Positions 55,757-63,330 of a stretch of 64,000 nucleotides of DNA are shown piece after piece. A model generated the notes under the pieces. That model saw nothing but the letters and a program-made list of their open reading frames with translations, was not told the origin of the DNA and ran no database searches. The translations under genes and the position numbers were made by a program. Source of the DNA: Candidatus Omnitrophota bacterium. GTDB taxonomy: Bacteria > Omnitrophota > Omnitrophia > Omnitrophales > Aquincolibacteriaceae. How positions within the stretch are numbered: position 1 is the first letter of the stretch; every line of letters begins with the position of its first letter. Where the stretch lies: positions 128,984 through 192,983 of the forward strand of contig JAKLIQ010000002.1 of NCBI GenBank assembly GCA_022709525.1, written 5' to 3'.

Positions 55757-58208
55757 CCGCCACCACGAGATTGACCGTTCGCCCCGGAACCACAATGATT
55801 TTTTTAAGGACTTTTCCGGCCAGCATTTCTTTCACACGGGGCTGCTCTAGCGCCAGCTGCTTGATCTCTTCTTCGTCCTGACTACGAGAAACGACCATTT
55901 TAGCCCGGACTTTACCGCCCACAAGGATCGCCAGTTCGGCCTGATCCTCCACAAGATACAGCTCATCATACTCGGGCCATTTTTCATAAGCAAGCGTCTT
56001 CGCATGTCCCAAACGCTGCCATAACTCCTCGGCCAGATGCGGGGCAAAAGGCGCCAAAAGAAGCACGAATTTTTCAAGCGCTTCCCTCGCGTGATCCTGC
56101 TCCTGCGCGGCTTCGTTGACAAAGATCATAAGAGCCGAGATCGCTGTGTTGAATCTCAGGCCCTCCAGGTCTTCGGTCACTTTTTTGATCGTCTTATGAA
56201 GCGTCTTCAACTCCGCCGTGTTGGCCGGACGCTGAACGATATTAGCGTGAAGCTTTTCATCTTTATCGATAAAAAGCCGCCATGCTTTCCCGAGAAACCG
56301 GTAAACGCCTTCGACGCCCGAGTTCGCCCAAGGTTTGGTCATTTCAAGCGGGCCCATGAACATTTCGTAGAGACGGAGACTGTCGGCGCCGTATTGCGCG
56401 ATCATCTCGTCGGGATTGACGACATTGCCGCGCGATTTGGACATTTTCTGATTGTCCTCGCCCAAGATCATGCCCTGGTTCGTGAGTTTTTGGAAAGGCT
56501 CTTTGGTGGAAACGAAACCGAGATCATAAAGCACTTTGTGCCAGAACCTGGCATAGAGAAGATGCAGCACGGCATGTTCGGCGCCGCCCACATAAAGATC
56601 GACATTCATCCAATATTTCTCTTTTTGAGGATCGACCAGGGCTTTTGCGTTCTTCGGGTCTAAATAACGAAGATAATACCAACAGGAACCCGCCCATTGC
56701 GGCATGGTGTTCGTTTCCCGCACGGCCTTGCCGCCGCATTTCGGACATTTGCAGGCAAGCCACTCCTCAGCTTTAGCAAGCGGCGGTTCAGCATTACCCG
56801 CCGGCGTGTAATCTTTCATTTCGGGAAGTTGGAGCGGCAACTCTTTTTCCGGTATGAGCACCGGCCCGCATTTTGAACAATGGACGACCGGGATCGGTTC
56901 TCCCCAATAACGTTGGCGGCTGAAAAGCCAGTCCCGAAGCTTATATTGCACTGCCTCTTTTCCGATCTTTCTTTCCTCAAGCCATTGCGTGATCTTTTTC
57001 TTCGCTTCCGGCGTTGGAAGCCCGGTAATGAGCCCGGAGTTCACGCTGACACCATCCCCGACGAAACCGATCGAATCCTTCCCGTCCGGCGCTTGAACGA
57101 CCACCTCGACGGGCAAACGATACGCCCGGGCAAATTCAAGATCGCGCGTATCGTGCCCAGGCACGGCCATGATCGCGCCGGTCCCGTACCCCATAAGGAC
57201 ATAATCTGCGATCCATACAGGGATCTTTTTATCGTTCACCGGATTGATGGCGTAGGCACCCGTAAAAACGCCTGTCTTTTTTTTGGCGAGATCGGTGCGG
57301 TCAAGGTCGGACTTGTGCGTCGCGGTAGCTACATATTCGTCTACGGCTTTTTTTTGAGCAGGCGCGGTGATCCTGGCCACAAGCGGATGCTCCGGCGCAA
57401 GAACCATATAAGTAGCGCCAAAAAGCGTATCCGGCCGTGTGGTAAAAACGGAGATCTCAGCTTTCAAATTTGAGATTTGAAATTTTACTTCCGCGCCGGT
57501 GGATTTCCCGATCCAGTTGCGCTGCATCTCTTTAATGGGTTCGGACCAATCCAGAAGCTCCAGATCTTTCAGAAGGCGTTCGGCATACGCTGTGATCTTC
57601 AGGATCCATTGCCGAAGCGGGCGTCGGTAAACATTTTTATGGCCCTTGCGCTCGCAAGTGCCGTCCGCATCCACCTCTTCATTGGCAAGCACAGCTTTGC
57701 AACCATCGCACCACCAAACGGGGATCTCGGCCTCATAGGCCAGGCCTTTTTCAAAAAGCTTCATAAAGATCCACTGGGTCCACCGGTAATAATGGGGATC
57801 GGTGGTATCAATTTCGCGATCCCAATCATAGCTGAAACCAACCTGTTGGATCTGACGTTTGAAGGTCTGGATGTTGTTTTGTGTGGTGTCGCGTGGGTGT
57901 GTGCCGGTTTCTATGGCGTATTGTTCGGCGGGAAGTCCGAAAGCGTCCCAGCCCATGGGGTGGAGAACGTTAAAACCGCGCATTCTTTTGTACCGGCTGA
58001 CGATGTCGGTCGCGGTATAGCCTTCCAGATGGCCGACATGGAGCCCTGATCCGGAGGGATAAGGGAACATGTCGAGAACATAATATTTTGGCTTTTCGCA
58101 ACCCGGCTCGCCGGGGTCGGGAGAGCGAAAGGTCTTACGGTCAGACCAATAGGTCTGCCATTTTTTCTCGATGACATCGAAAGGATAAGCTTTAAAGCCG
58201 CTGGCCAT
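55749..58208 (-). CDS. leuS: Leucine--tRNA ligase
   Basis: The HIGH motif reads HVGH. The KMSKS motif is present as KMSKS. Confidence 0.95.
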
Positions 58209-58245
58209 AGGAGGGGTTATTGTAGCAAAAGAGCGAGGATAATTC

Positions 58246-58273
58246 TTGAAAAAAAAGCTAATTCCACTAAGAT
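58246..58273 (+). promoter_or_regulatory. Candidate tRNA-operon promoter: TTGAAA, 16-nt spacer, TAAGAT
   Basis: Read directly as ttgaaaaaaaagctaattccactaagat. This lies about 50 nt upstream of tRNA-Ala. Confidence 0.4.
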
Positions 58274-58323
58274 GCTGACTGCTCTGCAGTCGGATCTTCC
58301 CGCGAAATCATTTCTTTGAACGT

Positions 58324-58399
58324 GGGCCGGTAGTTCAGTTGGTAGAACGCTACAATGGCATTGTAGAGGTCAGGGGTTCAACTCCCCTCCGGTCCACCA
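58324..58399 (+). tRNA. tRNA-Ala (anticodon GGC), G3:U70 pair, CCA encoded
   Basis: Read as GGGCCGGTAGTTCAGTTGGTAGAACGCTACAATGGCATTGTAGAGGTCAGGGGTTCAACTCCCCTCCGGTCCACCA. Confidence 0.85.
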
Positions 58400-58408
58400 T
58401 TTTTATTA

Positions 58409-58494
58409 GCGAGAGTGGCGGAACTGGCAGACGCACTGGACTCAAAATCCAGCGGTGCTCAAACACCATGAGGGTTCGACTCCCTCCTCTCGCA
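58409..58494 (+). tRNA. tRNA-Leu (anticodon CAA), type II with long variable arm
   Basis: Read as GCGAGAGTGGCGGAACTGGCAGACGCACTGGACTCAAAATCCAGCGGTGCTCAAACACCATGAGGGTTCGACTCCCTCCTCTCGCA. Confidence 0.85.
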
Positions 58495-58518
58495 CTGGTT
58501 TTCCCCCGATTTCTCCGA

Positions 58519-58926
58519 TCAAAAAAGCGTCTGGGGTTTTAGAGGCAGGTCGTCCTGATCGCCCGGCACGAACGCAAAAACCACATCCCATAACCCGCAA
58601 CCCAGGCGTGTCAGCGACCGGAAGGTCCCGTCAACAACACCCGCCATATCCCGGATCGCGCGGGAATTGCCGTTCGTCTTTCCGTCATATTCCTTGACGG
58701 TTAAAGGGATCTCCCACGGAAAACTCACGATATTTTTGACGCCGCGGGTGAATGTTCTTCCAAGCTGGGTGAAATAACCGGGCTCGGGCTCCGCGTAAGC
58801 GGGGCTAAGAAGGGCAAACCATAACGAAATGAACAAGAGACCCGTGATCTTAACTTTCATGGACCGCTCCTGACCTTTGGGTAATGCTTCTTTGGGCGAA
58901 ACAAACTTAAAGTTTTTAACTGCCAC
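58519..58926 (-). CDS. Hypothetical secreted protein
   Basis: An internal Met is followed by the signal peptide MKVKITGLLFISLWFALLSPAYA. The exact start is uncertain. Confidence 0.4.
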   Translation of the reverse strand: MAVKNFKFVSPKEALPKGQERSMKVKITGLLFISLWFALLSPAYAEPEPGYFTQLGRTFTRGVKNIVSFPWEIPLTVKEYDGKTNGNSRAIRDMAGVVDGTFRSLTRLGCGLWDVVFAFVPGDQDDLPLKPQTLF

Positions 58927-58984
58927 AGCCGATGAACTTTATGCGTAGCAGTGATCATTTCAAAAACATGAACAAGAGGAAACG

Positions 58985-59176
58985 ATGAAATCAGCTTACA
59001 GTTGCCCCGCGTGCCAATGGTCCGGCAGTGAAGCGAGCTTCGTCACAAAGATCCTCTCCATCATGTACCGCCCCAAACACGACAATATCCAGGCCTTCAA
59101 GCAGATCAAATGCCCCAAATGCCATAATTTGGTAACGATCATTTTTGAAACGCTTGACGGCACGATCGTCAAGTAG
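58985..59176 (+). CDS. Small zinc-ribbon protein (CxxC...CxxC), hypothetical
   Basis: The 63-aa product contains CPAC...CPKC. Confidence 0.35.
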   Translation: MKSAYSCPACQWSGSEASFVTKILSIMYRPKHDNIQAFKQIKCPKCHNLVTIIFETLDGTIVK

Positions 59177-59198
59177 CTCCCTCTTTTCCCCAGATCTT

Positions 59199-59972
59199 TT
59201 AACGCAAACACCCAAAGTGCGTCAATCTGATCCCGAGATGGTCGATGTACTTGCGGAGCTCTTTTAAGCTGAAAAGCTGATATTCCCTCTCGCGAGGGAT
59301 CGTGAGCGAACTGATCTCGCAAAGCTCATCATCCACCCACCCGGGATGGCACATGATCTCGCTGGTGCCTTCCGGCAACGTAAAGAGAAGATGCCGCAAC
59401 ACTTCTTCCGTCCAAAAAGTATGGGGATCGATGTTCCTGTAGAAATGGTCGGTCGTTTTAAGATTCTTGTGAATATTTTTAACGTCCGGTTCGGTAAGAA
59501 GACGGGTCCAGCGGATGGGCAGCTTGTTCTTTTTAGCGATCAAGGCGAGCGCCTCGAGAAAAGGCCGGTAATCATGCATGTGGTGGTGAACGTCCACATG
59601 GGTTGGCAACCGTTTGAAAATCTTCACGAATTTTTGGAGTTGGGCTTTAAATTCCTCGGCGATCTCGGAAATGGGCGGTAATCTTTTAGCGGAGTACTGG
59701 TCTTTTTTCTTGAAACGCCCGTCTTTTTGAAGAAGGGACTTCACCAGCGACGGCTTCGCCACGGGTTTTCCAAGCGTCACGTTCAGATGAAGCCCGATGC
59801 CAAGCTTTTTCCGGGATAAAAGTTCGCCCACCACGTCGGATTCGACCGGAAGATTGACCAGGAAAGTCGTGCTGGTCACAATGCCATTCTCATGCGACTT
59901 GAGAATGGCCTCCGTGACCCGGGAAGTTAAATTGCAATCATCCGCGTTGACGATCAGCGTTCGTTGTTTCAT
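59199..59972 (-). CDS. YdjC/ChbG/HpnK-family carbohydrate deacetylase
   Basis: The product begins MKQRTLIVNADDCNL. Confidence 0.7.
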   Translation of the reverse strand: MKQRTLIVNADDCNLTSRVTEAILKSHENGIVTSTTFLVNLPVESDVVGELLSRKKLGIGLHLNVTLGKPVAKPSLVKSLLQKDGRFKKKDQYSAKRLPPISEIAEEFKAQLQKFVKIFKRLPTHVDVHHHMHDYRPFLEALALIAKKNKLPIRWTRLLTEPDVKNIHKNLKTTDHFYRNIDPHTFWTEEVLRHLLFTLPEGTSEIMCHPGWVDDELCEISSLTIPREREYQLFSLKELRKYIDHLGIRLTHFGCLR

Positions 59973-59995
59973 GGCCGGCCATAATCTCCGTGCTG

Positions 59996-60376
59996 TTATG
60001 GGATAACGATCACCACAGTCGCGATGGCGTATTCCCGTTCATGCGCGACTGATAACTCGACCTGGGACTTTGCCGGAAGACGCAATCGCTTCCGGCTTTC
60101 CGCATCCAGCGCGATATAGGGCTTCCCCGTCGCCTCGCGCCGGACCTCGATCCCCGAAAGTCTTTGCCCCTGTTTCGGGCGTATTTTAAGAGCTTTCAGG
60201 ACGGCTTCTTTGGCCGCGAAACGCGCCGCATAATGCTCGAATTTCATGCGCTTCGAACCGCAGTAATCCTGTTCCGCCGCGCTAAAGACACGCTGAAGGA
60301 ACTTGTTGCCAGACCTCGCGATCATCTCTTCCATCCGCCGGACCTTGACGAGGTCGATACCCTGAAGGATCTTCAC
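59996..60376 (-). CDS. acpS: Holo-ACP synthase (housekeeping AcpS)
   Basis: Motifs GIDLVKV and FAAKEAVLKAL are present in a 126-aa product. Confidence 0.8.
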   Translation of the reverse strand: MKILQGIDLVKVRRMEEMIARSGNKFLQRVFSAAEQDYCGSKRMKFEHYAARFAAKEAVLKALKIRPKQGQRLSGIEVRREATGKPYIALDAESRKRLRLPAKSQVELSVAHEREYAIATVVIVIP

Positions 60377-60388
60377 AAAACGGCCACT

Positions 60389-60697
60389 CTAAGAAGCAAC
60401 GGCGGTTCGAAGAAACCAATAAGCCAACGCGGCAATGATCAGAACGGAAATAATGTAGAAATTATTAAAACGCCAGAAATCCCACAGCCGCTGACCGAGT
60501 GAGATCGAAGGGCCCGCCTTTTTTTTCTTCAGCAGGACATCATACTTGAGGTTCAAAACCTCTTCTTTCCGAAACCGGATATACACGCCGCCGATCTTGT
60601 AGGCATGGAGGACACCGTCGCGGATGAACTTTTCGATCATTTGCTGTTCGATCTCGAGGTAATTCTTCACCTCATCGAGAGTCAGCATGTTATTCAT
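60389..60697 (-). CDS. Excisionase-family HTH DNA-binding protein with C-terminal TM helix
   Basis: An N-terminal HTH (LTLDEVKNYLEIEQQMIEKFIRDG) is followed by C-terminal hydrophobic helices. Confidence 0.45.
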   Translation of the reverse strand: MNNMLTLDEVKNYLEIEQQMIEKFIRDGVLHAYKIGGVYIRFRKEEVLNLKYDVLLKKKKAGPSISLGQRLWDFWRFNNFYIISVLIIAALAYWFLRTAVAS

Positions 60698-60763
60698 GGT
60701 ATACGGACCTTTTCGGAGAAACAGATTGCGTGATGAATGGGACCGGAACGCTTCAAAGAAGCC

Positions 60764-61297
60764 TTAAACGCGAGCACGCTCCTGCTGGATCCACTGGTCG
60801 ATCTCGGACTTGGTAAAGACCCAGTGGCCGCTTTCAAAACGGGCCGGGATCTTTTTTGCATTGGCCCATTCTTCGACGACGCGCGCTTCAACCTCCAGGT
60901 ACTGCGCCACATCCTTAAGCGTCAGGAACACGTCGGGCCCCTCGGAAGCGCTTACGCCTTGCATGGTCACAAGCCCTTGAAGCATGGCGCCATCCCCCAC
61001 GCTCAAACGCGGCGTCGTAAGATTCCCTTTAAGAGTCGCGGTCCCTAGGATCGACAGACTGCGCGATGCCACAACATCCCCGGAGACTTTGCCTGCGATC
61101 ACAATGCTATCGCCGTGGATATTCGCCGTAACCTTGGCGTTCTCCCCGATCGTAAGATTGCCGCGCGTGTCGAGCTTGCCTTCGAAGCTTCCGTTAATGC
61201 GCAAATTGACGGGATCCTTGAACGAAATGGTCCCTTGCATGCTTGCGTCAACGTCGAGAATCTTTTCCTGGATATCTTCCTTTTTCTTATTGGCCAT
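60764..61297 (-). CDS. Bactofilin-domain protein fused to a C-terminal excisionase/MerR-type HTH
   Basis: Beta-helical bactofilin repeats (IxGxVxGD-like) are followed by LTLKDVAQYLEVEARVVEEWANAKKIPA. The start was set at the ATG that has the SD AAAGGAGA 8 nt upstream. Confidence 0.6.
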   Translation of the reverse strand: MANKKKEDIQEKILDVDASMQGTISFKDPVNLRINGSFEGKLDTRGNLTIGENAKVTANIHGDSIVIAGKVSGDVVASRSLSILGTATLKGNLTTPRLSVGDGAMLQGLVTMQGVSASEGPDVFLTLKDVAQYLEVEARVVEEWANAKKIPARFESGHWVFTKSEIDQWIQQERARV

Positions 61298-61334
61298 GGT
61301 CGCTCTCCTTTGGAGGCATTGTGGGATAAAAAAC

Positions 61335-61384
61335 TTAGTCCCAATTCCTATCAATTTCAGAGAATCTGAAATTGGGGCAATCCT
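61335..61384 (-). promoter_or_regulatory. Copy A of the conserved ~48-nt element in the 5' leader of the bactofilin-HTH gene
   Basis: The minus strand reads AAGGATTGCCCCAATTTCAGATTCTCTGAAATTGATAGGAATTGGGACTAAG. Confidence 0.6.
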
Positions 61385-61426
61385 TGTCAACCATTCGAGA
61401 AAAAAATACCAGACAAGGATGATTCA

Positions 61427-61455
61427 TTATCTTCATTTTATCGGACCTTGTCAAT
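61427..61455 (-). promoter_or_regulatory. Sigma70-type promoter: TTGACA, 17-nt spacer, GATAAT, upstream of element copy A
   Basis: The minus strand reads TTGACAaggtccgataaaatgaaGATAAT. Confidence 0.45.
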
Positions 61456-61545
61456 GAATGGCGCGAGACTCGGGACTTGTTCCCCGGGGCCCGTTGGATG
61501 CCCGCTTTTCTCGAGTCCCCAGCCCCGAGTAATAAGTTCCATTTT

Positions 61546-62628
61546 TTATTGGATCTCTCCCGCCCCCCAGCAAACGCCGCAGCGATAAAATACGGCGAAT
61601 TGGCCCGGCGTTACGGCGCGCTGCGGTTTTTGGAAAACGATCCGGGCTCTGCTCCCTGAAAGCGGATAAAGTGTTCCCGGCGTCGCCGCCTGACGGTAAC
61701 GGATCTTTGTCTGGACACGAACAGGACGCTCAGGTTTCCCTCCGATAAAATTGCAAAGCGAAAGCGATACCTCCCGGCTTAAAAGTTCTTTTTCATGGCG
61801 GGTAACGTGAAGGATGTTTTTCTTTGCGTCCGACCCCTTGACAAAAAAAGGACCGCCGGAGAATCCGAGCCCCTTGCGTTGGCCGATCGTATAAAAGTGA
61901 AGGCCTTGATGTTTGCCGATCATCTTGCCGTCGTCATCACACACTTCCCCTTCCCTCCGGCCGATCTTTTTTGTTAAAAAAGAATCCATAGAACCGCCTG
62001 AAACAAAACAAAAGTCCTGGCTCTGTTTCCGTTTAAGAAAAACTTCAAACCCCCGCTTGACCGCCATTTGATAGACCTCTTGCTTCGTATAAGCCCCAAG
62101 CGGAAACACAATATGTTTTAATTGTTCCTGGGAAAGAAAGCTGAGCGAATAGGTTTGGTCTTTTTCTCTATCTCTTCCAACAAGCAATTCATAACGATGA
62201 GTTTTCGGATTTTTTCGAACCCGGGCATAATGGCCGGTCGCCACATGATCGATCCCGCGGCGATTCGCCCATCCTAAAAGCTGTTTGAATTTAAGAAACC
62301 GGTTGCACATCACGCAGGGGTTGGGGGTTTTGTGGCCTTTTAAACGTTCGAGGAAATAATCGATCACTTCTTTTTTAAAATCACGGGATACGTCAAAGAC
62401 ATGGTGAGAAACGCCGAGTTTTTTACAGACATTTGCGGCGATCCGGAATGATTCCGCGCTGCAGCAAATATTTTCCCTGAGCCCGTTTGCCTTATCTTTC
62501 CAAACAGGATATTTCAATGAAACGCCCACGGGATCCCAGCCCTGCTCTTTTAAAAGGACAAGGGCCATAGAAGAATCCACGCCGCCCGACATGCCGACCA
62601 CGATAGATTTCCGTTTCAAAACGGACAT
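61546..62628 (-). CDS. mnmA: tRNA-specific 2-thiouridylase MnmA
   Basis: The PP-loop reads VVGMSGGVDSS. Catalytic Cys residues are present. Confidence 0.9.
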   Translation of the reverse strand: MSVLKRKSIVVGMSGGVDSSMALVLLKEQGWDPVGVSLKYPVWKDKANGLRENICCSAESFRIAANVCKKLGVSHHVFDVSRDFKKEVIDYFLERLKGHKTPNPCVMCNRFLKFKQLLGWANRRGIDHVATGHYARVRKNPKTHRYELLVGRDREKDQTYSLSFLSQEQLKHIVFPLGAYTKQEVYQMAVKRGFEVFLKRKQSQDFCFVSGGSMDSFLTKKIGRREGEVCDDDGKMIGKHQGLHFYTIGQRKGLGFSGGPFFVKGSDAKKNILHVTRHEKELLSREVSLSLCNFIGGKPERPVRVQTKIRYRQAATPGTLYPLSGSRARIVFQKPQRAVTPGQFAVFYRCGVCWGAGEIQ

Positions 62629-62634
62629 AAAAGA

Positions 62635-63330
62635 TCAGGGCCTTCCGAAGGAATGATAGAAACCCGAAAGACGGAGGGCAAAAGCCGCGGCAGATTGAGA
62701 AGAAGAAGAGATCTTGATCCGTCTTAAAAGATAGGGATTCCCGATGAATTTCCGGTCATGGATATGGCTTGCGGCGCAGCCGTAGGCGTAACCGGCTCCT
62801 TGCGCCATTTCGACGATCTTTTCGTTAAAAGACCCGGAAGGATAAGAGATCGCACTGACTTCCCGACCGAGCTGTTCTTCCAGGATCTTTTTCGAAGCGA
62901 CAAGTGAAATCCATGCCTCTTTTTCCGGAATATCGGAAAGAGGTCTGTGCTCAAGCCCGTGGCTTCCAATCTCAATACCCGGAACCTCCGCCATTTCGCG
63001 GAGCATATCCCAGTTCATGAACCCCTCCTGACCGATGTCTTGCGGGGTCGCAAAGAAAGTGGCTGCGAATCCGAATTCTTTTAAGACCGGCAAAGCCCAG
63101 CGATAGTTATCCGCATAGCCATCATCGAATGTGATGGCTGCCTTGCGATCCAAAAAGCCTTCCGTCCACCCGCCTCTCGCGCAGGATTCAAGTGTCACGA
63201 TCTTAAAGCCCCATTTTTTAAGCAAAAGCATCTGCTGCCTGAAAATCTGAGGGCTGATCGCGAGTTTATTGTTTGGAAAACGCCCAGGATCCAAGCTGTG
63301 ATAAGCAAGAATGGGAATAAATCTGCTCAC
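62635..63330 (-). CDS. Polysaccharide deacetylase (NodB homology domain)
   Basis: Motifs ITFDDGY and HGLEHRPL are present. Confidence 0.75.
   Translation of the reverse strand: MSRFIPILAYHSLDPGRFPNNKLAISPQIFRQQMLLLKKWGFKIVTLESCARGGWTEGFLDRKAAITFDDGYADNYRWALPVLKEFGFAATFFATPQDIGQEGFMNWDMLREMAEVPGIEIGSHGLEHRPLSDIPEKEAWISLVASKKILEEQLGREVSAISYPSGSFNEKIVEMAQGAGYAYGCAASHIHDRKFIGNPYLLRRIKISSSSQSAAAFALRLSGFYHSFGRP

Follow-up and report, generated by a model that had tools for sequence, protein, structure and literature searches.

A bactofilin-winged-helix fusion and its membrane-anchored HTH_17 partner in Omnitrophota: a possible chromosome-to-membrane tether

Two adjacent genes in a 64,000-nucleotide stretch of a Candidatus Omnitrophota bacterium genome (contig JAKLIQ010000002.1, positions 128,984 to 192,983; hereafter the window) encode a bactofilin fused to a winged helix (gene A) and a small membrane-anchored protein (gene B) with a helix-turn-helix (HTH) domain of the same Pfam family, HTH_17. 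The two stand side by side in every related locus in which the sequence downstream of gene A could be read, and across the phylum they represent a variant, as yet uncharacterised, of a scaffold type already known. Of the readings considered, a chromosome-to-membrane tether is the likeliest, and we put it forward tentatively: a membrane-anchored bactofilin filament that would hold nucleoid DNA, with gene B as the anchor and main DNA contact and the polymer giving avidity. A scaffold that does not touch DNA and a regulatory switch are live alternatives.

The open reading frame (ORF) list places two co-oriented minus-strand genes within positions 60389-61297, where an initial annotation made from the sequence had put them. 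The genes and their parts are as follows.

60764..61297, minus strand: gene A, bactofilin plus winged helix, 177 amino acids, stop codon included in the coordinates (ORF list, Pfam, AlphaFold)
60962..61261, minus strand: gene A bactofilin beta-helix domain, residues 13-112 (Pfam PF04519, Foldseek match to 2n3d)
60929..60961, minus strand: gene A acidic flexible linker, residues 113-123 (drop in model confidence, charge)
60767..60928, minus strand: gene A MerR/excisionase-type winged helix, residues 124-177 (Pfam HTH_17, AlphaFold, Foldseek)
60389..60697, minus strand: gene B, small membrane-anchored HTH_17 protein, 102 amino acids, stop codon included in the coordinates (ORF list, Pfam)
60554..60688, minus strand: gene B HTH_17 winged-helix domain, residues 4-48 (Pfam, hhalign)
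60455..60481, minus strand: gene B juxtamembrane motif D-F-W-R-F-N-N-F-Y, residues 73-81 (column counts, 80 loci)
60404..60460, minus strand: gene B single transmembrane helix, about residues 80-98 (Kyte-Doolittle, AlphaFold)
61304..61311, minus strand: Shine-Dalgarno sequence AAAGGAGA of gene A (read from the sequence)

The mechanical ORF of gene A reaches further upstream, to a TTG at 61390; judged by sequence comparison, the gene starts at the ATG at 61297, because the Shine-Dalgarno sequence is conserved and the N-termini of homologues read MA(N)KKK. A protein 100% identical to gene A carries the name 'polymer-forming cytoskeletal protein [Candidatus Omnitrophota bacterium]'. Long antisense ORFs over genes A and B recur across loci (window 60764-61048, plus strand; L001 6482-6817, minus strand); these are treated as artefacts that arise only from the strong conservation of the sense genes. 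For the family comparisons below, one genome per GTDB species was scanned and 404 encoded relatives of gene A; neighbourhood counts refer to the best 80 loci kept of these 404, with downstream sequence readable in 79.

The N-terminal part of gene A is a bactofilin. Residues 13-109 match the Pfam Bactofilin profile (PF04519; E = 4.2e-23, 81.9 bits against a cut-off of 27.9), and in an AlphaFold2 model built on a 42-sequence alignment (mean predicted local distance difference test score, pLDDT, of 86) residues 10-112 form beta-strands with a pLDDT of ~90-96. When compared with the PDB by Foldseek, this part resembled the bactofilin BacA (2n3d; TM score 0.83 on the target, root-mean-square deviation (rmsd) 2.1 Å, 103 columns), and a Thermus bactofilin was also among the matches. 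With a profile score above the cut-off and a beta-helix core like that of BacA and the Thermus protein, gene A thus qualifies as a bactofilin. In common with canonical bactofilins (Caulobacter BacA and the Thermus thermophilus protein), gene A combines the beta-helical core with a conserved hydrophobic residue at the column of BacA F130 and Thermus F105, where F-to-R mutants fail to polymerise (PMC12448750). The residue here is L106, and L, I, M or V occupies the column in 80 of 81 family members, a pattern consistent with polymerisation of gene A into filaments.

Gene A departs from canonical bactofilins at both of its ends. A membrane-targeting sequence of the consensus MFSKKKK is typical of bactofilin N-termini, though not obligatory, and Phe2 and the lysines are critical to it (PMC12448750). 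The N-terminus of gene A, MA(N)KKKE, retains the consensus lysines and lacks this phenylalanine, which was found at position 2 in none of the 80 loci (Ala in 69, Val in 4, Gly in 3); direct membrane binding by gene A is therefore doubtful. What the family does possess is an almost invariant stretch covering windings 1-3 of the beta-helix (residues 14-62), charged surface residues included, in a protein whose mean column identity is 71%. Such conservation suggests an interaction surface beyond the needs of the fold. At the other end, canonical bactofilins have a disordered C-terminal tail, whereas gene A continues through an 11-residue linker of variable sequence (residues 113-123; pLDDT ~64, mean net charge -1.9) into a folded winged helix of 54 residues.

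This C-terminal domain matches HTH_17 (PF12728) over residues 124-173 (E = 2.1e-12, 47.6 bits against a cut-off of 27), and residues 124-176 are modelled with a strand-helix-helix-strand-strand-helix topology at a pLDDT of 85-96. The two Pfam matches and the predicted HTH fold bear out the initial annotation, which had described a bactofilin fused to an HTH of the excisionase/MerR type. In the PDB, Foldseek matched it to BldC (6amk/6ama), at an rmsd of 1.3-1.5 Å and a TM score of ~0.8; further matches were RacA, MerR regulators, the excisionases RdfS and Pukovnik, CbpM and the centromere binder Par of pSK1. By sequence, the top PDB match of the gene A HTH was RacA (E = 0.021).

Gene B carries a second HTH_17 domain (residues 4-48; E = 3.9e-7, 30.7 bits against a cut-off of 27). 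Profile-profile alignment with hhalign matched it to the gene A HTH (residues 124-167) with a probability of 90.7% (E = 1.3e-6, 32% identity), and the two domains have in common the signature LTL-x-[DE]-V-xx-YLE-[VI]-E-xxx-[VI]-E-x-[WF]. By these sequence comparisons the winged helices of A and B are paralogues. Toward its C-terminus gene B has one transmembrane helix at ~80-98 (Kyte-Doolittle 19-residue windows of 1.7-2.08, maximum 2.08), and AlphaFold models residues 67-101 as helical at a pLDDT of 79-91. The initial annotation was thus right about the HTH_17 domain and the membrane anchor of this protein, while the several transmembrane helices that it had described come down to one. A basic KKKK linker and an amphipathic juxtamembrane stretch precede the helix, and ~5 residues follow it. 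Because the KKKK stretch and arginine on the N-terminal side fit the positive-inside rule, the N-terminus of gene B is predicted to lie in the cytoplasm. The protein is highly conserved (mean column identity 85%), and its juxtamembrane motif DFWRFNNFY, with F74 in 79 of 80 sequences, F77 in 77 and Y81 in all 80, exceeds the recognition helix in conservation.

The pairing of the two genes is strict. Gene B lies directly downstream of gene A and in the same orientation in 79 of 79 loci, which upholds the pairing that the initial annotation had pointed out for a single genome; the gap between them has a median of 67 nucleotides (66 in the window), and the genes overlap by 1-4 nucleotides in three loci. 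In 77 of the 79, the genes run A, B, acpS, usually with ydjC next. The 80 loci are at 53-89% identity to gene A; those that are named belong to Omnitrophota, and so do all named members among 361 homologues of gene B. In a search of 1.84 billion cluster representatives, ~20-25 clusters of full-length fusions were present at the 50% identity level, down to 27% identity. The named distant clusters are labelled 'PVC group bacterium' or Omnitrophica, and in NCBI taxonomy Omnitrophota is part of the PVC group. The gene A protein served as the seed of this search, so independent bactofilin-HTH fusions in other phyla could have escaped it.

Genes of the window include leuS, mnmA, acpS, holA, murJ, uvrC and comEC, and the GC content is flat across it. 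The pair is a chromosomal core or housekeeping module. Since the locus lies among chromosomal housekeeping genes and 77 of 79 loci have acpS after the pair, one half of the earlier proposal of a chromosome or plasmid positioning device falls away, namely the plasmid; the chromosome tether is partly supported, as set out below.

In the arrangement that we favour, A and B would form a two-protein module, conserved across Omnitrophota and co-transcribed with acpS. Gene A would polymerise through its bactofilin beta-helix into nucleotide-independent filaments, with each subunit bearing, on a short acidic tether, a winged helix of the MerR/excisionase type. Gene B would reside in the cytoplasmic membrane by its single C-terminal helix, its winged helix and basic wing facing the cytoplasm, and would keep at the membrane a filament that has itself lost the N-terminal peptide by which bactofilins usually target the membrane. 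The winged helices, lined up in a linear array, could then grip nucleoid DNA with high avidity, B making the main contact and A possibly a further one, and the net effect would be a chromosome tethered or organised at the membrane, for which RacA-DivIVA of Bacillus and BacNOP-PadC of Myxococcus would be analogues. The analysis establishes the domain architecture, the folds, the paralogy of the winged helices, the single transmembrane helix, the strict gene pairing and the core chromosomal setting; we infer that gene A polymerises, that A and B touch, that DNA is bound and what the module does in the cell.

Several observations speak for such a tether. The closest solved relatives of the gene A C-terminus are DNA architectural proteins (RacA, excisionases, pSK1 Par, and BldC, which forms cooperative filaments on DNA), and gene A has no Phe2 while its invariable neighbour is a membrane protein. 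Precedents exist for both kinds of contact, as bactofilins organise chromosome segregation proteins (PMC5703909) and a bactofilin binds an HTH protein directly (PMC13649987). Additionally, the very high conservation, the strong promoter and the strong ribosome-binding site are more in keeping with a structural protein made in abundance than with a rare regulator. The DNA contacts published for BldC (K26, T27, T29, R30, K33, H46, R47, R48) and RacA (K15, R19, R30, Y36) were mapped onto A and B by alignment, and residues were counted over 81 sequences for gene A and 80 for gene B, with the following results.

Column of BldC K26 and RacA K15: R/K139 in gene A, basic in 69 of 81; Q19 in gene B, variable
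Column of BldC T27: V/I140 in gene A; M20 in gene B, variable
Column of BldC T29: E142 in gene A, Glu in 77 of 81; E22 in gene B, acidic in 72 of 80
Column of BldC R30 and RacA R19: E/D143 in gene A, acidic in 78 of 81; K23 in gene B, basic in 50 of 80
Column of BldC K33: N146 in gene A, variable; R26 in gene B, basic in 49 of 80
Wing (BldC R47, R48): W159 and V160 in gene A; a Gly-Gly turn in gene B, then K34, R41, R43 and K44 in 78-80 of 80

Gene B looks the more DNA-competent of the pair and a plausible DNA binder, because it has the Gly-Gly turn and a nearly invariant basic wing. Also in favour of a DNA contact are the basic residues that gene B holds at the BldC R30 and K33 columns in about 50 of 80 sequences and the one that gene A holds at the K26/K15 column. 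The RacA Y36 column is occupied in gene A by an aromatic residue.

Other observations weigh against the tether. BldC R30A abolishes DNA binding (PMC5859096), and its equivalent RacA R19 makes key base-specific contacts (PMC4914108); the recognition helix of gene A has a near-invariant Glu at the T29/R30 columns, and its wing reads W-V-F and is not basic. Judged by these residues, the gene A winged helix looks unlike a canonical reader of DNA, its recognition face being remodelled and acidic, and it may bind DNA weakly or unconventionally, or bind protein instead. CbpM works by binding protein, not DNA. It too has a Glu at the BldC R30 column and an acid-rich second helix (3ucs; Foldseek TM score 0.44), and it was crystallised in complex with the CbpA J-domain, according to the title of that entry. 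For gene B, the HTH assignment rests on sequence profiles, because the AlphaFold model is poor there (pLDDT 47-67); Foldseek output for this part was meaningless. No partition, division or condensin genes (parAB, smc, ftsZ, mreB) were linked to the pair in the 80 loci. Nor was a conserved operator or repeated DNA motif found near the genes when the 260 nucleotides preceding gene A were screened for perfect inverted repeats in every locus and the upstream sequences of 27 close relatives were aligned, an approach that gave only lineage-specific palindromes. Both winged helices are also slightly acidic, with a mean net charge of ~-1; this argument against DNA binding was dropped, as the aligned stretch of RacA is equally acidic.

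A stronger version of the tether, in which the Omnitrophota filament binds DNA directly through winged helices on every subunit and is riveted in place by B as a cytoskeleton for chromosome anchoring or segregation, is unlikely. If true, it would be a bacterial cytoskeletal polymer that sits on DNA without an adapter or a nucleoside triphosphatase.

The remodelled face of gene A fits a membrane scaffold made of protein only, an alternative that we regard as doubtful overall and that is the best surviving competitor of the tether. Here the winged helices would be protein-protein adaptors that do not bind DNA, and B would replace the lost membrane-targeting peptide, touching the filament through the pair of winged helices, through a contact of winged helix and beta-helix, or through the DFWRFNNFY motif. 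The module would then serve envelope tasks (cell shape, division, synthase localisation), as most characterised bactofilins do. The Glu or Asp of gene A at the key arginine column, the Glu at the T29 column and the non-basic wing all fit this alternative, for which CbpM offers the precedent of a MerR fold whose acidic 'recognition' helix belongs to a protein-binding module. A further precedent is BacR, which binds bactofilins with a modelled interface near its HTH and a reduction of DNA binding (PMC13649987). In charge, the acidic linker and HTH of A complement the KKKK linker and basic wing of B, and pairing between paralogous domains is frequent; near-invariance of the kind expected of a binding interface is seen in the juxtamembrane motif of B and on the windings 1-3 surface of A, and links between bactofilins and integral membrane proteins recur (PMC13649987; PMC12448750). 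However, most HTH_17/MerR-type domains bind DNA, gene B retains the typical basic wing and Gly-Gly turn, and gene A retains the basic residue equivalent to K26/K15. Moreover, clustering of the ORFs in the 80 loci revealed no peptidoglycan or division gene linked to the pair.

Quite unlikely, in our estimate, is a regulatory partner switch of the BacR kind, in which the winged helices would be transcription factors whose access to DNA is set by sequestration on the polymer or the membrane, for example if B were freed by proteolysis or the HTH of A were masked on polymerisation, and which would tune the operon (acpS included) or a wider regulon. This possibility draws on Firmicutes, in which a DUF4004 HTH protein is genetically linked to bactofilins that bring BacR to the membrane and lower its DNA binding (PMC13649987), and on the role of small winged helices of the BldC type as developmental regulators (PMC5859096); the gene A promoter region is also highly conserved in the close clade, with a GTGACGGTCAC palindrome by the -35 element in several relatives. 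Nevertheless, the palindromes are lineage-specific and no operator-like motif runs through the family, and no match to DUF4004 was found. With only ~5 residues beyond the membrane, gene B therefore has no sensor domain, and extreme conservation together with strong expression signals would be unusual for a dedicated regulator.

A function in a mobile element, as an excisionase or recombination directionality factor, in plasmid partition or in phage defence (MADS), is effectively refuted: some JGI records call both proteins 'excisionase family DNA binding protein' and two tRNA genes lie 2 kb away, but the matches to TIGR01764 'excise' (27.5 and 28.5 bits against a cut-off of 28.8) and MADS MAD1 (NF047737, 44.4 and 25.9 bits against 80; PADLOC mad1, 22.8 bits, gene A only) are weak, housekeeping or sugar-metabolism functions account for the Pfam-scanned neighbours, which include neither an integrase nor a relaxase or partition ATPase, different species keep the gene order A, B, acpS, and the GC content does not shift.

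Among known systems, RacA-DivIVA is the closest functional analogue of a tether in which winged helices would ride on a self-associating membrane-proximal scaffold. RacA is the chromosome anchor of sporulating Bacillus subtilis and binds GC-rich ram sites via Arg19 (PMC4914108). Both systems would combine a small MerR-like winged helix with a flexible linker and a self-associating module close to the membrane or pole (PMC4914108); RacA, however, self-associates by a coiled coil and reaches the membrane via DivIVA, where the Omnitrophota pair would use a bactofilin and a separate transmembrane protein. The resemblance is functional only. Gene A was rejected as a member of the RacA-type anchors, as it has no coiled coil, its domain lies C-terminal to the beta-helix and the key Arg19 column holds Glu or Asp, and the sequence match is far too weak for orthology.

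In the BacNOP-PadC-ParABS system of Myxococcus xanthus, a bactofilin polymer positions the chromosome segregation machinery (PMC5703909). Its adapter, the ParB-like PadC, binds the C-terminal extension of the bactofilin and is nucleoid-associated when produced in E. coli (PMC5703909). The link to DNA in Myxococcus is thus indirect, by way of PadC, ParA and ParB, whereas here a domain of DNA-binding type is fused to the bactofilin itself. Membership in this system was likewise rejected, with no PadC, ParA or ParB in the part of the window scanned with Pfam (41.7-64 kb) or among the recurrent neighbours of the 80 loci.

A genetic link between an HTH protein and bactofilins is also found in Bacillus subtilis, where BacR (YhbD) is linked to the bactofilins BacE and BacF and binds them directly (PMC13649987). 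The bactofilins recruit BacR to the membrane and its DNA binding is lowered when bound, with a modelled interface near the HTH (PMC13649987). By analogy, the Omnitrophota fusion looks like a hard-wired, 'Rosetta stone' version of the pair of BacR and its bactofilins. BacR differs in being a separate soluble protein of ~29 kDa (as the Strep-tagged Geobacillus form) with a DUF4004 C-terminus, whereas the HTH domains here are fused or membrane-anchored; gene A and gene B were not assigned to the family, as no DUF4004 match appeared even at E values up to 10 and only the linkage of an HTH to bactofilins is common to the two.

Members of the BldC family share this minimal winged helix (rmsd 1.3-1.5 Å) and likewise have no dimerisation domain (PMC5859096). 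BldC and excisionase-type proteins bind DNA as cooperative arrays (PMC5859096), and a polymer scaffold could mimic an array of this type. The contacts T27, T29, R30, R47 and R48 of BldC are not retained in gene A, and membership in the family (NF033787) was rejected at 22.1 and 13.7 bits against a cut-off of 77, the domain here being fused and BldC free-standing at ~68 amino acids. CbpM (3ucs) has in common with gene A the MerR-like fold, the acid-rich second helix and the Glu at the R30 column, a likeness in fold only (TM score 0.44); it is free-standing and pairs with a DnaJ-like protein, and no such partner was seen for gene A. Finally, some bactofilins attach stably to the membrane by transmembrane helices that replace or supplement the amphipathic N-terminal peptide; CcmA of Proteus mirabilis, for example, has transmembrane segments at its own N-terminus (PMC12448750), unlike the Omnitrophota pair, in which the helix belongs to a separate partner protein and would provide the attachment.

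In the searchable library, no paper on a fusion of bactofilin and HTH_17 was found, and Omnitrophota bactofilins are mentioned there only in a passing word. Bactofilins are widespread and poorly understood scaffolds whose clients are usually recruited via short peptides or adapters. The fusion described here hard-wires a domain of DNA-binding type to the polymer and joins it with a membrane-anchored sister domain, across an entire phylum of very small, uncultured bacteria known almost exclusively from metagenomes. Should the module tether DNA, no more direct connection of a bactofilin with the chromosome would be known, and it would offer a simple, reconstitutable model of how a polymer lends weak winged helices high avidity. 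Should the winged helices be protein adaptors, a lost membrane-targeting peptide would have been replaced by a dedicated anchor, and the contact between HTH and bactofilin seen with BacR would be generalised.

A distant paralogous clade of bactofilin-HTH_17 proteins, at 27% identity to gene A, occurs in Omnitrophica WOR_2 without an adjoining homologue of gene B, which shows that the fusion has diversified within the phylum. In one lineage of this clade the fusion lies behind a 465-amino-acid ATPase of the ParA/MipZ/CbiA type, which also has an AMPK1_CBM hit, and three genes that lack Pfam hits; a second lineage has it in front of a HisKA histidine kinase and a sigma-54 activator/response regulator (loci L084, 150-4317, and L081, 179-3641). 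The ParA/MipZ-like neighbour is a weak hint that such fusions are linked to positioning systems. A scan of metagenome contigs with P0253 yielded no confirmed loci of distant relatives; the alignment of the distant members held no stretch conserved enough to search with.

Around the pair, the window contains the following further features.

59996..60376, minus strand: acpS, holo-ACP synthase (Pfam ACPS, 61.1 bits), 12 nucleotides downstream of gene B
59199..59972, minus strand: YdjC-family gene (Pfam YdjC, 178 bits), 23 nucleotides downstream of acpS
61426..61454, minus strand: candidate sigma-70-type promoter upstream of gene A (TTGACA, 17 nucleotides, GATAAT)

When all ORFs of the 80 loci were clustered, the recurrent neighbours were acpS, ydjC, a small secreted-looking protein, leuS, surE, greA, an aldehyde dehydrogenase and an aminotransferase. 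The genes upstream of A vary across the family, with mnmA in that position only in close relatives, the window included. In seven more distant loci a greA-like gene (157 amino acids) stands between B and acpS, for example at L062 6854-7327; the link between B and acpS is therefore not absolute. An apparent B-acpS fusion of 228 amino acids in L040 has an internal stop and was discarded as an artefact of ORF extension.

The candidate promoter at 61454-61426 matches the sigma-70 consensus at 11 of 12 positions. Of 26 close relatives (L001-L027), 24 have its pattern TTGACA-N17-NATAAT, which none of the more distant loci shows, and the Shine-Dalgarno core AGGAG is retained in all aligned close relatives. 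Between promoter and start codon, the 5' leader of gene A has an insertion of ~90 nucleotides relative to most close relatives (window 61336-61421, minus strand), which holds a second TTGACAAGG and, at 61352-61376, a perfect 10-bp inverted repeat, CAATTTCAGA-TTC-TCTGAAATTG. The insertion is common to L002 and L004, a similar piece occurs further upstream in L003, and the window has a single copy. In an Rfam scan of 58200-62700 only two tRNAs reached the gathering score, and the leader had no match. The insertion may represent a regulatory hairpin confined to this lineage, or else a small element that is mobile or duplicated. In L002 and several close relatives, the window not among them, the GTGACGGTCAC palindrome (GTGAC-G-GTCAC) abuts the -35 element ~175 nucleotides before the start of gene A and could be a lineage-specific operator.

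The two tRNA genes, tRNA-Ala(GGC) and tRNA-Leu(CAA), are at 58324-58495 on the plus strand, between leuS and a small conserved protein, and no integrase or repeat was seen nearby. The small protein is encoded by a 135-amino-acid ORF at 58519-58926 on the minus strand that has no Pfam hit and contains an internal methionine followed by the signal-peptide-like sequence MKVKITGLLFISLWFALLSPAYA; most of the closer loci retain it downstream of ydjC.

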